Below, in pieces: positions 12,380-32,311 of a DNA stretch of 64,000 bases. Under the pieces are notes generated by a model. That model was not told where the DNA came from, searched no databases, and was given only the letters and a program-made list of their open reading frames with translations. Source of the stretch: Sporopachydermia quercuum (lineage: Eukaryota); contig BCGN01000003.1 of assembly GCA_001599295.1 (NCBI GenBank), positions 1,054,001 through 1,118,000 on the forward strand, in the 5' to 3' direction. Numbering within the stretch: the stretch's first letter is position 1; each line of letters starts with the position of its first letter. Position numbers and translations under genes: made by a program.

Positions 12380-13203
12380 TATAGAAGAGATAGACTCTTT
12401 GGCGGCTAATGATTATCTGATAGTTTTTATCCTAGATTATCACTTGAATTGACAAACCAGGAAGGCCTGCTCCGATGCCGAGTTTCTACAAGTTGTTACA
12501 GGTTTTTATGATTGTTGTGCGNTCTATTACTTTATAGCATTATTATTACTATAATCAATGGTATTGTATTATATCAGTATTCAATAGTAACCTATTACAA
12601 GAAGCTTAGCACCACTTTACGCATATTGAAGGGAACATCTAAGAAATGTAATAGGTAAATCGGAGACTGAAAATTCGGAGATGATAGCAATTGTTCGGTA
12701 GAGGAGGAGTTTACAATGAACAATGTAATACATTATTATGGAACTTTGAGTTCAGTTCAATTTGCCTAGGAATATAGCTAGAAAGCGGGTAATACCGAAA
12801 AATGAAGAATCGTAATATATATAATCACACAGCTTGGCTATTCAAAACATTGTAATCACTTAAGAAAATAAGAACCATTCAGTGGGCACAAGGAATATTT
12901 AATTCGTATTATAGATTACCTTTAAAAGCTTTACGGTGTAACAACCAGCTATACATTACTTATAACTAAACCCACGTGACACATTGGCATTTTACATTTA
13001 TCTATATTTCTATTTGTACCTTTTATATATATACTATTTATTTCGCTGATTATTTACTCTCATTCTTCTCTTTCTAATTAATAATAAGAAGAAGGAGAAG
13101 AAGGGAAAAGAGTAAGAATTCTAATATAATTCTTCATTATTTCTTAAAATTCATTTTATTTTACTGAATGATATATGATCAGACAGGAACATACGGCCAA
13201 GTG

Positions 13204-13291
13204 TCGGCAATAGTTTAGTGGCTAGAATTTCCGCCTGTCAGAACACTTGTTCAGCGCGCGGGGGACCGGGGTTCAATTCCCCGTTGCCGAG
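13204..13291 (+). tRNA. tRNA-Asp(GTC) with a 16-nt intron (13241-13256)
   Basis: Acceptor stem TCGGCAA/TTGCCGA plus discriminator G; D arm GTTT..GAAT; anticodon stem TCCGC/GCGGG with GTC at 13237-13239; T arm CGGGG-TTCAATT-CCCCG; intron after position 37. Confidence 0.93.
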
Positions 13292-24232: not shown

Positions 24233-25042
24233 TGTGCCGAATATAATACAGTTTTATTCTTATCTTTGGGTGACTCAAAAACGTTTTTTCGGTTAAGTGG
24301 TGGTATCTCTTTCTAGCTGACTGGATTTATAATTTTTGCACTATAAATTGAACATATACTTCTTCTTCTGCTTCTTTGAGTATGGATGTACAGCGTATAG
24401 GTTTGTAGCATAGATACTGGTATCAAACAATGCTAACTGAAAAGCTAGTTGGATGTACAGTAGGGGAACGTTCAATCTATTGAGAATCAATCAGTTATGC
24501 ATCAAAATAGTGACTGAGTATCTATCTATTCAATAAATAAACTAGCTTTATGTATGTAAATGTATTGTATATTCATTATTAGTACAATCAATTGTGCCAA
24601 AGTATTGTAGTTCATTCAAATCCTGATTAGTTGCTTTAGTAACAAAACATGTTGGAAAGTTATTCATAAACCGGGTAATGAGTAAAGCTTGAGGGTTATA
24701 ATGGATATGCTCTTCACGTGCTTTTATATAGGTTATATAAGTGTCACATTTCTGTTATAAGTCAGGTTCAATGGTTTCCCAAACGGGTATATTCATTATT
24801 ATTTTCTCTTTTTATCTTTTTTTTTATCATCTTCTGCAGTTCTGGAGTTGAATCAGATTGACGCACTAGGTCCTCAATGCTTGGAAGAGCCCAATGTGAT
24901 TCGTGCTTGTATTGGTTTCTCTACTACTGTATAGAATAATATCTTGAACTAGTTACTTGTTGTTTAAGATATCACTGAGATTCGATTGGAATTGTGGAAT
25001 TGTTTTACTGCATCACAGAACCAAGGAATAAAGTATAGTCAA

Positions 25043-25294
25043 GTATGTATAATTGAGTTTCTATTGGGTTTGGTATTTGAAGACATTTGCACAAATTCAG
25101 CGGGGTTCGTGAGATTCAAGGAAGTATTCAACAGTCAAAAGGTGGATTTAATTGTATCATAGTGAACTAGCTGATAGCAACGCATTACAACATACAGACG
25201 TGGAGATAACACACAAAGTGGTACATGTTTGCTTCATATATTAAAACAACTCAATAGTGTTGTCTTTAGCAGTTTTGTTAACATGTTAATTTAG
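25043..25294 (+). other. 5'-UTR intron of RPS25 ending 1 nt before the ATG
   Basis: GTATGT at 25043, TGTTAAC at 25276-25282, TAG at 25292-25294, then A-ATG. Confidence 0.75.
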
Positions 25295-25295
25295 A

Positions 25296-25679
25296 ATGCC
25301 ACCTAAGATTCAACAAACAAAAGCCGCTAAGGCTGCCGCTGCCATGGCCGGTGGTAAGAAGTCCAAGAAGAAGTGGTCCAAGGGTAAGGTTAAGGACAAG
25401 GCCCAACACGTTGTCATCCTTGACCAAGAAAAATACGACAGAATCTTGAAGGAAGTTCCTACCTACAGATACGTTTCTGTCTCAACTTTAGTTGACAGAT
25501 TGAAGATCGGAGGTTCTATCGCTAGAATTGCCATTAGACAATTAGAAAATGAAGGTATCATCAAGCCTATTGTTAAACACAGCAAGCAATACGTCTATGG
25601 TATGTTACAGATTTGAATTTTGGCTTTCAATACTTAGGAATCGTTACTAACCAAACTAGTTCGTGCTATTTCTGAGTAA
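25296..25679 (+). CDS. RPS25: 40S ribosomal protein S25 (eS25), 2 coding exons
   Basis: Exons 25296-25599 and 25660-25679. Intron 25600-25659 (GTATGT / TACTAAC / TAG). The spliced end YVYVRAISE* matches the Rps25 C-terminus. Confidence 0.95.
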
Positions 25680-26062
25680 ATCTCAGGTTAATGCTATCAT
25701 TAGCAATGTTTCAAAAATGTTTCTGATGATGATATTATCTTTTCTAAACACATCTAATGTACAAATAAAAATATAATACTCGATCCAAACACTTTGTAGG
25801 CCGCAGATTGATATCATGTAGCATTGCTTGTAGACCAAGGCTTGATTTTTGTATTTCGTTCAACATCGACAATAGCCCTCTATTTCTATATAACTCCAAA
25901 TTTATCCTAACAGCGATGAGCAATTATAATTCTTGTTAATTGTTATTATTCCTTAAGTTCAGTGTGTCAACAGTCCTATTTGAACGAACCTCTTGTGATC
26001 TCAATCATATCCTATTTTAAGTTTAAACTTATACGATATAAACGAAGAAACAGTCTTGGGAT

Positions 26063-26131
26063 CACGTGCTTCACGTGACCGCTTTTCAATCAAAACAATT
26101 TTTCATTGTATTTTAACTTTTATATATAAAA
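26063..26131 (+). promoter_or_regulatory. Promoter of the snoRNA host gene: two CACGTG boxes and a TATA box
   Basis: CACGTG at 26063 and 26072; TATATATAAAA at 26121-26131. Confidence 0.6.
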
Positions 26132-26370
26132 GGAGTCCAATGGAAACCTCCTCTTCTTCTTCCTAAGTGCAAATCTTTTTCTTGGTTCTTACTTGGAGCG
26201 GCTTTTAGATTATCAACATAATTTTATATGTATCAATGGAAACAAACATGGTATTAACATTGAATTACTTAATACACTATTGTAGTATGGTAGAGTAAGT
26301 AAAGATTATGAAGAAGCTGTCACTGGTTTTAAGCGTTGATTGATTTATCTCATGTATTGCTTTGGATTAG

Positions 26371-26452
26371 CTAGAATGATTATGACTTTTAAGATAGCTG
26401 AGGATGTAAATGCAGGACACANATAAAATGGAATTCTTCGTTGATGACTTGC
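26371..26452 (+). ncRNA. snR57: C/D box snoRNA snR57 (18S Gm1572 guide)
   Basis: Box C ATGATTA at 26376. Guide GGAATTCTTCGTTG (26430-26443) pairs with 18S CAACGAGGAATTCC. Variant box D ATGA at 26444. Internal GAGGATGTAAATGCAGGAC resembles yeast snR57. Confidence 0.85.
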
Positions 26453-26591
26453 ATTCCAAAGCATGATATTTTTCAATCAATGATATTGATTTCGTTTCAT
26501 ATAGTGTAGCTGGGTTAAAATAGGGTGATAAACTAACATTAATATAGTGATTGTATGTTTAACTATTGAAAATCAATACTAAACAGTTCTG

Positions 26592-26670
26592 TTGTTATGA
26601 GGAAACTTTACACAATCGTATCTCGGTGAATCCTGAGCCTTAGATATACATGCACTACCATCTGAACAAA
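26592..26670 (+). ncRNA. snR55: C/D box snoRNA snR55 (18S Um1269 guide)
   Basis: Box C ATGAGGA at 26597; conserved CACAATCGT. Guide CATGCACTACCA (26649-26660) pairs with 18S TGGTGGTGCATG. Box D CTGA at 26662. Flanking 10-bp inverted repeat 26583-26592 / 26673-26682. Confidence 0.85.
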
Positions 26671-26855
26671 TGACAGAACTGTGCGTTATTTTGTCAGTTG
26701 AAGCAATATCTAACAAATGATAGTGAACATATCCAGTGTAGGTTTAACTCCAATCACGTAAACCTGGTGTCTTTGAATTATACTTAATGGTAAGTTTTCA
26801 TACGCGCTTTTATGCAGGGTTTAACTGTCACTCAACTTGGAACTATATATTGATA

Positions 26856-26948
26856 TTTAAATGATGAAAAGTAAATGATATCAGTTCTGCTTCTGACCAA
26901 GTCATGAAGATACTCCTTTACCAAAGCTCTAGAATTACTCTGAATTAA
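26856..26948 (+). ncRNA. snR61: C/D box snoRNA snR61 (25S Am1133 D' guide, plus an 18S D-box guide)
   Basis: Box C ATGATGA at 26861; guide TCAGTTCTGCTT plus D' CTGA at 26893; C' ATGAAGA at 26904; guide AGCTCTAGAATTAC at 26925-26938; D CTGA at 26940. Flanking inverted repeat 26848-26857 / 26947-26956. Confidence 0.9.
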
Positions 26949-27368
26949 TATCAATATCAAGATTGAGTGATACTTATTGCAACATGCATCAATTTGATCA
27001 ATTGGAGGTATACTAACAGTCTCTACAGTGCTGTATAGTTCTCAGGCATATATTATCCTTAAATATCCAATTATTTANTCCAAATTAAGTTTAGTTCATG
27101 TTTCACCATATAATCTTCAATAATACACATAATTGTATAGTATACTATAGTTTGTTTATAGATAAGTAATGACACAGTAGTTGAATAACCATTCATCAAA
27201 ATTTATACCAAATTGAAAACTTGTTGCTATACGATGCAGCAGAAATATGTCCACTATGTATCATACCATAAATTGATAACGAATGTAACAGTGGAACAGT
27301 GGAACAGCTAACAACTTGTTTCAACTTAAAGCCAGATGACTAACATATTATAAGTACCTCTTTCCCAA

Positions 27369-28856
27369 TCAATGAATATTATCAAGACGAGCTCTATTGA
27401 GATGCACTTTGATATCAGCCTTATCAGTATCTCTTTCGATTTGATCTAATCTGTTATTCTGGCTGTCGATTTCCTCACCAGTTGCAATTGCAAGTCCTTT
27501 AAGTCTAACTGCTGCATCATACATAGTAGACAAGTTACCATGAATCTCCTCTTCTATTTGATCATCTTCCTCATCAGCTTCAAATTGGTACTTGCTAGCT
27601 TGCTGTTTGATCCGTTGTCTATCATATCGTTGACGAGTATCAGATTTCTCCTTCACCGGATTTCTGTTCTCCAAAACATTTTTGATTCTCTGTTCTGATT
27701 CATAAGCTGCTTGCCGTTGTCTCTCCATTTCGTACTTCTGTTCTTCACGGGCAATTTTGATTTGAGCTTCTTTTTCTCTCAGCTTACTTTTAGAATTGAA
27801 GGGATTTCCCACATGAACGGCAAAAATGCTTCTGTTAAGTTTGGCAATTTCTTTGGCTTGATCGTTAGCAATTTGATTTTGAGTGTCAGCCAAGGAAAGA
27901 TTCTTCTCCACTGAATATAAACTAGCACCTTGTGATCCTAGCATTCCAAGAGTATTTTGGCCATGGATTTCTGCTTGGTTAGCCATTTGAAGAAAATTTC
28001 GCGTTTCTGCTAGTGTATCAAGCTTAGTATCCTTAATGTCTCGTTTGATGCCTTCTACTTCTTCATCACTATTTTGTTCTTGAACTTGCTGCTGATCTTT
28101 TGGGAGGAAGTTAAAATCCGATTCATCATCTTCTGCTGGTGTTGCATCAGCTGCAGCTCTACTTTTGCTATTGTAGCCTCCGCTGTTATAGTCATCTGAT
28201 GAGATACCTCTCGTATTCGCAAAACGAGAAGATGCAAATCTGTTCTTGTTTGCTCCTTCAAACAATTCATTCTTAGCAGCTAATAACGTACTGGTCGTTT
28301 CACTTGAGTTAGTTCTCTTCAATGGTGCTCCGTTGTTGAACTGAGAGTAAGGCGAGCTAGTGCTATTAAAATCGGTGTGAGTGGAGCTTTGGTCGTAGCT
28401 TGAATAGCCTGAATGCACATTGTTGTCGGATATAGTTGGCTTTATACTACTGTAAGGATTTCCATTAGAAGCGGAAGATATTCCACCTAAAGAATTGCTA
28501 CTGTGATTATTGTTGAATTGCGAGGACCCATAGGCATAACCAGCCGATGATGACGTAGTTGTTGATGGTTTCATATGGCTATAAGGATTGACAGTTGTTG
28601 TTGCTTTCATTGAAGCATAAGGATTGCTTCTATTGGTATTACCACCTCCAGCCTCAGCATTCATTTGACTGATAACCCCTCCTGTGTTTGGTTGAAGCGG
28701 TTGTTTATTTTTGTTCAGTTCGCTGGCATAATTTCCGAAAGCTGCAAACTTGTTTTCTCGTTTGCTCCCAGTATTTACCGGGATTCCCTTCCGTTGCATA
28801 TCATCCCGAATTTCATCTGGCGAATATTCCTTCTTTTTATTGAATAGTTTCTTCAT
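27369..28856 (-). CDS. SEC9: Plasma-membrane Qbc SNARE Sec9 (SNAP-25-like)
   Basis: NPY-rich N-terminus; two SNARE motifs (TLGMLGSQG...LNRSIFAVHVGNPFNS; LKGLA...EEIDSQN). Confidence 0.93.
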   Translation of the reverse strand: MKKLFNKKKEYSPDEIRDDMQRKGIPVNTGSKRENKFAAFGNYASELNKNKQPLQPNTGGVISQMNAEAGGGNTNRSNPYASMKATTTVNPYSHMKPSTTTSSSAGYAYGSSQFNNNHSSNSLGGISSASNGNPYSSIKPTISDNNVHSGYSSYDQSSTHTDFNSTSSPYSQFNNGAPLKRTNSSETTSTLLAAKNELFEGANKNRFASSRFANTRGISSDDYNSGGYNSKSRAAADATPAEDDESDFNFLPKDQQQVQEQNSDEEVEGIKRDIKDTKLDTLAETRNFLQMANQAEIHGQNTLGMLGSQGASLYSVEKNLSLADTQNQIANDQAKEIAKLNRSIFAVHVGNPFNSKSKLREKEAQIKIAREEQKYEMERQRQAAYESEQRIKNVLENRNPVKEKSDTRQRYDRQRIKQQASKYQFEADEEDDQIEEEIHGNLSTMYDAAVRLKGLAIATGEEIDSQNNRLDQIERDTDKADIKVHLNRARLDNIH

Positions 28857-31792: not shown

Positions 31793-32311
31793 AAATAGGG
31801 TATTAGATGATAAAAAATATAACTTGCCTGTGTATAAGTAAAACGTGAAATTAATATAGAAAAGAAGATAAATGAATTGAGATTTTTGGGAAGAGTATCG
31901 CTAAAAATTATACTATTATTTCTAACATTATATGATGTAAATACCTATTTGTATGCACGTGATGTGCACATATTAGTACTTTAGACTGTCACAACTTTGT
32001 CTTAGTAAACTTTGTACCTGTATTGCCAGAATAGGAAATAATCTTGAACTTTGAATGTTCTTCCAGGTAATGTCAAATTCAAATATGCAAGAGTGTGAAC
32101 AGACAACTCAAACATTGGGGTGGAACTCACGCACACTCAGGCAATGGACTCACATACTCTAGTCTGAAGCAAACCACAAACATCTAGCTGTATCTTTCAT
32201 ATATTGATATAATCCTTATATGAAGATAGTGTGGTTGTGAATCAAAAAGACGTTTATTGTTCATCAACGAATCAATATCGGAACACATATATATAACGCA
32301 TAATATCAGAA

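Follow-up and report, generated by a model that had tools for sequence, protein, structure and literature searches.

The gap between RPS25 and SEC9 in Sporopachydermia quercuum appears to contain a host gene of fungal snoRNA cluster II, from which snR57, snR55 and snR61 would be released by way of three predicted introns. We put this reading at a probability of about 0.88, because the gap holds three sets of splicing signals, the snoRNAs stand in their conserved order with guides that pair where expected on rRNA, and this genome's clusters I and III are likewise nested in introns. A sequence-only reading of this DNA had proposed such a host gene and had noted that the general system is known, as it is from cluster II in Luo 2013 (PMC3596301) and Donovan 2016 (PMC5033589). 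That reading overlooked one feature of snR61, which carries a second guide directed to 18S rRNA. The D' guide for 25S A1133 and a U45-type D guide for 18S are thus found on one RNA here. Positions below refer to the window, the 64-kb stretch of DNA that was analysed, unless they carry the name of another locus.

The gap is flanked by RPS25 (25296 onward, Pfam S25) and by SEC9 on the minus strand (27369-28856, with its stop at 27369), which is named from homologues and has no Pfam match. It had been called free of open reading frames, and no ATG frame of at least 60 aa lies between the two genes. The three complete introns proposed earlier, and the exons of 5 and 66 nt between them, were recovered at exactly the same coordinates (Table 1). 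Among 1000 dinucleotide shuffles of the gap, 886 gave no intron, 110 gave one, four gave two and none gave three. Each donor/branch/acceptor set (3 of 3) encloses one snoRNA, and each snoRNA does lie well upstream of its branch point, with 89 nt (snR57), 48 nt (snR55) and 73 nt (snR61) from box D to the branch adenosine. The longest ATG frames in three predicted spliced forms have 33, 40 and 31 codons; with the signal sets, these lengths agree with the proposal of a non-coding host that has one snoRNA per predicted intron. The splice sites around the 5- and 66-nt exons neither overlap nor abut, unlike those of nested or recursive introns. Since the signals are complete and non-overlapping, splice-site regeneration of the nested or recursive kind would be unnecessary here. 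The locus is single-copy in this genome and lies on a long contig.

Table 1. Coordinates of the features of the predicted cluster II host gene.
Feature	Position	Strand	Remarks
Two E-boxes (ATCACGTG, CACGTGAC)	26061-26079	+	CACGTG at 26063 and 26072
TATA-like element	26121-26131	+	consensus match only
Exon 1	26132-26294	+	inferred from donor 26295; start placed right after the TATA element
Predicted intron 1	26295-26547	+	253 nt; GTAAGT...AACTAAC...TAG; branch 26531-26537
snR57 (Rfam span)	26357-26454	+	55 bits, cut-off 50
snR57 flanking stem	26358-26366 / 26455-26463	+	perfect 9-bp arms, extended by a 24-nt 75% stem
snR57 boxes	C 26376-26382; D' 26398-26401; D 26444-26447	+	probable C ATGATTA; D ATGA
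snR57 guide for 18S G1572	26430-26443	+	S. cerevisiae numbering
Exon 2	26548-26552	+	TGATT, 5 nt
Predicted intron 2	26553-26723	+	171 nt; GTATGT...ATCTAAC...TAG; branch 26708-26714
snR55 (SNORD33 clan)	26590-26671	+	under Rfam cut-offs
snR55 flanking stem	26583-26592 / 26673-26682	+	perfect 10-bp arms
snR55 boxes	C 26597-26603; D' 26633-26636; D 26662-26665	+	non-consensus C ATGAGGA
snR55 guide for 18S U1269	26648-26661	+	
Exon 3	26724-26789	+	66 nt
Predicted intron 3	26790-27028	+	239 nt; GTAAGT...TACTAAC...CAG; branch 27011-27017
snR61/U45 double guide	26856-26946	+	snR61 60.9 bits, cut-off 45
snR61 flanking stem	26847-26857 / 26947-26957	+	perfect 11-bp arms
snR61 boxes	C 26861-26867; D' 26893-26896; C' 26904-26910; D 26940-26943	+	
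snR61 D' guide for 25S A1133	26881-26892	+	
snR61 extra 25S-pairing element	26917-26925	+	
snR61 second guide (U45-type)	26925-26939	+	18S around A155 (stand-in rRNA)
Last exon	27029-27100	+	inferred from acceptor 27028; 3' limit nominal

Protein genes of the window also yield intron-like units in the identical scan, TCTAAC branch sites included; one example, 24110-23991, directly precedes the large NUP2 exon. RPS25 is predicted to have an intron of 60 nt immediately ahead of its final codons (25600-25659, GTATGT...ACTAAC...TAG) and, by eye, a 5'-UTR intron at about 25044-25294 that ends just before the ATG. An extra intron upstream in the cluster II gap (GTATGG 26285, TATTAAC 26252) was rejected for want of a canonical donor upstream.

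All three family names given earlier hold, snR57 and snR61 through Rfam, and snR55 through its guide, an alignment and its being the best match in the genome. The Rfam scan that had been put forward as a check gave a divided answer: snR57 and snR61 pass their cut-offs, and the middle RNA falls below them, with 35.1 bits as SNORD33 (cut-off 44) and 21.1 bits as snosnR55 (cut-off 50). Despite this score the middle RNA is probably snR55, having the right guide in the right position. It is the better of two snosnR55 family matches genome-wide, and it aligns with two Candida-type RNAs that score 58.9 and 48.9 bits as snR55, with guide and boxes in common. The order snR57, snR55, snR61 on one strand is the conserved order of cluster II. 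Perfect 10-bp flanking stems had been described for snR55 and snR61; that of snR55 stands, that of snR61 measures 11 bp, and snR57 has a stem of 9 bp as well. In a protein-free fold of the snR61 region the terminal stem does not form (z +0.69). The sequence of snR57 has a single N at 26422. Within its stretch 26364-26382, the position that Rfam aligns as box C reads GGATTA and lies partly inside the flanking stem, with ATGATTA 12 nt downstream; box C may be shifted inward, and TGATTA at box C is a trait of the family.

Host rDNA was not found in this assembly by family search, paired pattern or single motif, and pairing was therefore tested on contaminant eukaryotic rRNA. This stand-in rRNA was fetched from prokaryote assemblies as loci in which sequences complementary to the guides of snR55 and snR57 lie 280-310 nt from each other, which we take to be their spacing in 18S. 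Thirty-three contigs (L004-L036) match this eukaryotic 18S pattern, and all 10 that were checked against Rfam are eukaryotic 18S, that is, contamination; the copies are presumably plant-like, to judge from their look. All three RNAs carry the C, D', C' and D boxes, and 10 nt or more before D or D' are complementary to the stand-in rRNA. The D guides of snR57 (14-15 bp, one G-U) and snR55 (13 bp, two G-U) pair with stand-in 18S, pairings that are partly built into the fetching pattern. Both snR61 pairings are independent of that pattern; its D' guide forms a 12-nt pairing with 25S in the single stand-in locus that covers the region. For the D' guides of snR57 and snR55, the stand-in loci gave no consistent rRNA target. 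The supplement of PMC3116282 names S1572, S1269 and L1133 as the targets of snR57, snR55 and snR61.

The second guide of snR61 forms Watson-Crick pairs at 15 of 15 positions with 18S in 5 of the 33 stand-in loci, namely the ones extending into the 5' part of 18S. The duplex has an energy of -22.5 kcal/mol, and a length of 15 was reached by none of 2000 shuffles of the guide. The same stretch gives a partial and weak SNORD45 match (14.7 bits, model positions 48-66). A genome-wide search for a separate U45 gene, by a pattern of guide plus box D, had its sole occurrence at the cluster II locus. Two genome matches to the SNORD45 family were rejected as U45 genes: the better one (L058, 26.3 bits, cut-off 42) lacks the guide, and the other (L059) gave no match on an Rfam rescan. 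A second exact 13-mer (L071) was likewise set aside, as it lies inside a protein ORF and has no box D. Pairing between 18S and the element that follows box C in snR61 is weak, differs among RNAs and has no control.

How would these RNAs be produced? Intronic snoRNAs are released by debranching and exonucleolytic trimming, and flanking stems assist box C/D assembly. At this locus, RNA polymerase II would transcribe from the E-box/TATA promoter, probably one akin to ribosomal protein gene promoters, and the spliceosome would excise the three introns, as the signals suggest and as has been shown in other yeasts. Debranching and trimming would then free the snoRNAs, with the flanking stems aiding box C/D assembly. 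The products would be snR57 (18S Gm1572), snR55 (18S Um1269) and snR61/U45 (25S Am1133 plus the 18S adenosine near 155), and the exons would be passive spacers, free to shrink. The 5-nt exon would probably force ordered splicing, intron 1 and then intron 2, or occasional skipping.

Could the transcript instead be an unspliced polycistron, as in S. cerevisiae, with an RNase III type endonuclease cutting the flanking stems and the splice signals left as relics? Perfect stems of 9-11 bp surround all three RNAs and count in favor of this; the Rnt1 signal is a hairpin whose loop reads AGNN, and no linker hairpin of that kind was noticed. Relics in decay would not be expected to stay intact, yet all the donor/branch/acceptor sets are: the three donors read GTAAGT or GTATGT and the branch sites are whole, so that splice-signal decay is not apparent. 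The degenerate or absent splice signals of the Saccharomyces-type polycistron are not seen here, and we hold this explanation to be highly improbable. The S. cerevisiae snR57-55-61 polycistron does share the snoRNAs, their order and their main targets (S1572, S1269 and L1133), but it is without introns and its snR61 has only AGCTC at the place of the second guide. The sequence-only reading had also suggested that the 5-nt exon could be an intermediate in the loss of introns. Exon 2 is very short, and these clusters commonly lose exons, with 61 cases counted over three clusters in Luo 2013 (PMC3596301). In that paper, however, exon loss leads to juxtaposed introns with splicing kept, and the intronless state of Saccharomyces is ascribed, citing Mitrovich 2010, to degenerated splice signals. 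Moreover, lineages with cluster II exons of -1, 0 and 1 nt still splice all three introns (Donovan 2016, PMC5033589). Two metagenome loci retain such short exons as well, one (L037) with a shared G and a second intron that has no AG of its own, the other (L038) with a shared G and a 1-nt exon. In the present genome, clusters I and III combine a predicted 0-nt first internal exon with intact signals. Since short exons accompany retained splicing and the Saccharomyces state is ascribed to signal decay, the idea of an intermediate is not supported and seems improbable, and with published exons of -1, 0 and 1 nt and predicted 0-nt exons in this very genome, an exon of 5 nt is unremarkable.

Splicing from three intact introns, the reading we favor, fits with the other snoRNA clusters of this genome. 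Cluster I (L041:1254-2368) holds snR77, snR76, snR75, snR74 (SNORD27) and snR73 in five predicted introns, and a search of it for snR78 and snR72 gave no match at E 0.05. Cluster III (L042:867-1650, minus strand) holds snR41, a probable snR70 without an Rfam match, and snR51 in three predicted introns. By sequence, the 0-nt first internal exon falls at TAG/GTATGG in cluster I and at AAG/GTATGG, with an AAG acceptor, in cluster III; later internal exons in both are about 33-49 nt.

Published relatives show how far the layout is shared. Cluster II is intronic in most fungi, which RT-PCR has confirmed for D. hansenii and Y. lipolytica (Luo 2013, PMC3596301), and with C. parapsilosis (PMC5033589) this makes three yeasts with splicing documented by RT-PCR or RNA-seq. 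The clusters of Candida, L. elongisporus and D. hansenii have the same families in the same order, one per intron (PMC3596301, PMC5033589). Those of C. albicans, C. parapsilosis, C. orthopsilosis, L. elongisporus and D. hansenii share non-coding exons and a double-guide snR61 with the present locus. Candida cluster II differs in its exons, of -1, 0 and 1 nt against 5 and 66 nt here, and the present host lies outside the CTG clade. Euascomycetes have lost snR57 from cluster II (PMC3596301). N. crassa has UHG-like non-coding hosts with intronic C/D snoRNAs and exon skipping in cluster I, and its CD17, the U45A/C homologue, is a D-box guide for 18S-Am154, the same adenosine as in snR61 here; there, however, the guide is on a separate RNA in another cluster (PMC2780460). 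In vertebrate UHG and GAS5, too, the introns serve as the product, with exons as spacers (PMC2780460, PMC3596301), an analogy in principle only.

The promoter motifs reported earlier, two CACGTG words and a TATA-like run, are present. We take the two E-boxes, by consensus, to be Cbf1-type sites. CACGTG occurs six times in the window: twice at cluster II, once each upstream of RPL10, RPS25 and RPL6, and once in a dispersed repeat. It is found upstream of all three snoRNA clusters (I, II and III) and of all three ribosomal protein genes identified in the window, and it is plausible that cluster II is co-regulated with ribosomal protein genes through this word. Paired CACGTG sites number 56 genome-wide, compared with 1 for a control word; among the 50 listed, 15 are one repeated word, and the dispersed repeat was present in 3 of 3 such loci examined. 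This repeat (about 300 bp; L045, L054 and L057, 93-95% identical) carries the paired CACGTG word and is possibly a solo LTR. A stretch related to it by eye (window 12950-13010) lies just upstream of a tRNA gene (13204-13291) that was missed by ARAGORN in bacterial mode; the gene scores 49.6 bits in Rfam and has the anticodon GTC (Asp) and an intron-like insertion of about 15 nt. Beside CACGTG, a word of the form (C/T)GTCACA or CAGTCACA stands at RPS25 and RPL6 (window 24715-24750 and 31956-31995) and at clusters I and III (L041 about 820-950; L042 about 1930-1952), and it is absent at cluster II. We take this word to resemble the Homol-D box consensus.

The snR61/U45 recombinant was described in Candida species by Luo 2013 (PMC3596301), and the hybrid has been published as arising in the Candida clade's ancestor and restricted to the CTG clade. 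The present host does not fall within that restriction. To judge from DPH6, it reads CUG as leucine: over 13 CTG columns in 120 homologues, Leu averages 0.48 and Ser 0.06, with 0.43-0.78 for other Leu codons, and three of the columns have Leu in 120, 116 and 114 of the 120. Exceptions are position 24, mostly Ser or Ala, and the variable position 40. The best protein matches are only 37-50% identical, and an exact look-up found none of three proteins. In a quick tree of SEC9, built from 121 rows and the last 260 residues, the host falls, on a long branch, outside a 50-row CTG-clade group (100 SH-aLRT). In quick DPH6 trees (49 and 21 rows from the 120 homologues, named taxa first) it falls below a group that also includes Pachysolen and Saccharomycopsis and whose other members belong to what we take to be the orders Pichiales, Serinales and Phaffomycetales. 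An AU test on DPH6 rejected membership of the Candida subclade (p 0.005) and did not reject a sister position to the core CTG clade (p 0.13). These placements come from single-gene quick trees in which the query branch is long.

Because this yeast decodes CUG as Leu and its branch lies outside the Candida clade, the hybrid is either much older than published and repeatedly decayed, or it arose twice. snR61 here has 90% mean column identity with three Candida-type hybrids and the same guide junction, and all four also carry the element A(A/T)ATG(A/T)TAT behind box C. By eye, the published snR61 alignment of 45 rows (PMC3116282) has the full guide in two, Ctro and Calb, and the post-C element in the same two rows. 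GCTC occurs there in 13 of the 17 Saccharomycotina rows, among them that of S. cerevisiae, and in none of the 28 others; the P. pastoris, Y. lipolytica and S. castellii rows are without it. The L. elongisporus row lacks the full guide, contrary to PMC5033589. Our metagenome scan required the hybrid, returned three loci, all Candida-type, and is uninformative on non-hybrid snR61. Viral contigs gave no snR61 homologue, and none of 10 pattern matches in prokaryote genomes had an Rfam match. A literature search found no report of the hybrid outside Candida; the main text of PMC5824354 uses neither the name snR61 nor U45, and the supplements or figures of that paper and of PMC3596301 could contain one.

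We lean, at just short of even odds, towards one ancient snR61/U45 fusion that took place before this lineage parted from Candida and Saccharomyces and that later decayed in most yeasts, leaving GCTC as a relic. The guide, junction and post-C element shared with Candida-type RNAs agree with this, as do the distribution of full guide (2 of 45 rows) and GCTC in PMC3116282 and the rejection of a CUG-Leu host from the Candida subclade. On the other hand, a single fusion implies that the guide was lost independently several times (Ppas, Wano, Clus, Psti, Lelo and Saccharomycetaceae), GCTC may persist for another reason, and one gene leaves room for this host being sister to the core CTG clade. Two independent gains are a real possibility too, though short of an even chance. 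GCTC equals the 5' end of the U45 guide, and while already extending the 25S pairing it could therefore have acted on two occasions as a seed, or microhomology, by which that guide was captured. GCTC can pair with GGGC, which stands upstream of the 25S site, and the pairing then has -11.3 kcal/mol, versus -8.0 for the shorter stretch without GCTC. The patchy distribution of the full guide is consistent with separate gains, and guide shuffling among snoRNAs is common in fungi (PMC5824354). Such gains would require convergence of the post-C element as well, which is confined to RNAs with the full guide. Transfer or assembly contamination from a Candida-clade yeast would explain why snR61 here is nearer the C. 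albicans and C. tropicalis type than other published rows, but we think it very improbable. Mean column identity with the Candida type is 74% for the neighboring snR55 and 79% for snR57, a divergence that, like the exon layout, which differs from that of Candida, makes transfer unlikely. The locus is also single-copy on a long contig, and the gene downstream is SEC9, with the ORF ends in L037-L039 not alike by eye.

The architecture of this locus is ordinary, already published for other fungi and relevant to annotation only. The sole addition is a double-guide snR61 outside the CTG clade, which contradicts the published restriction to Candida and is of modest interest, for snoRNA specialists. 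Our tentative view, held at somewhat under even odds, is that the double guide predates the Candida-Saccharomyces split, that most budding yeasts, S. cerevisiae among them, then lost its 18S half with the GCTC stub kept, and that cluster II here is near-ancestral. If the ancient origin is true, this early-branching yeast would keep three self-contained introns and a double-guide snR61, and yeasts would have given up 18S methylation near A155 more than once. The second guide also offers a clean test case for repeated loss versus repeated gain of one rRNA methylation across yeasts.
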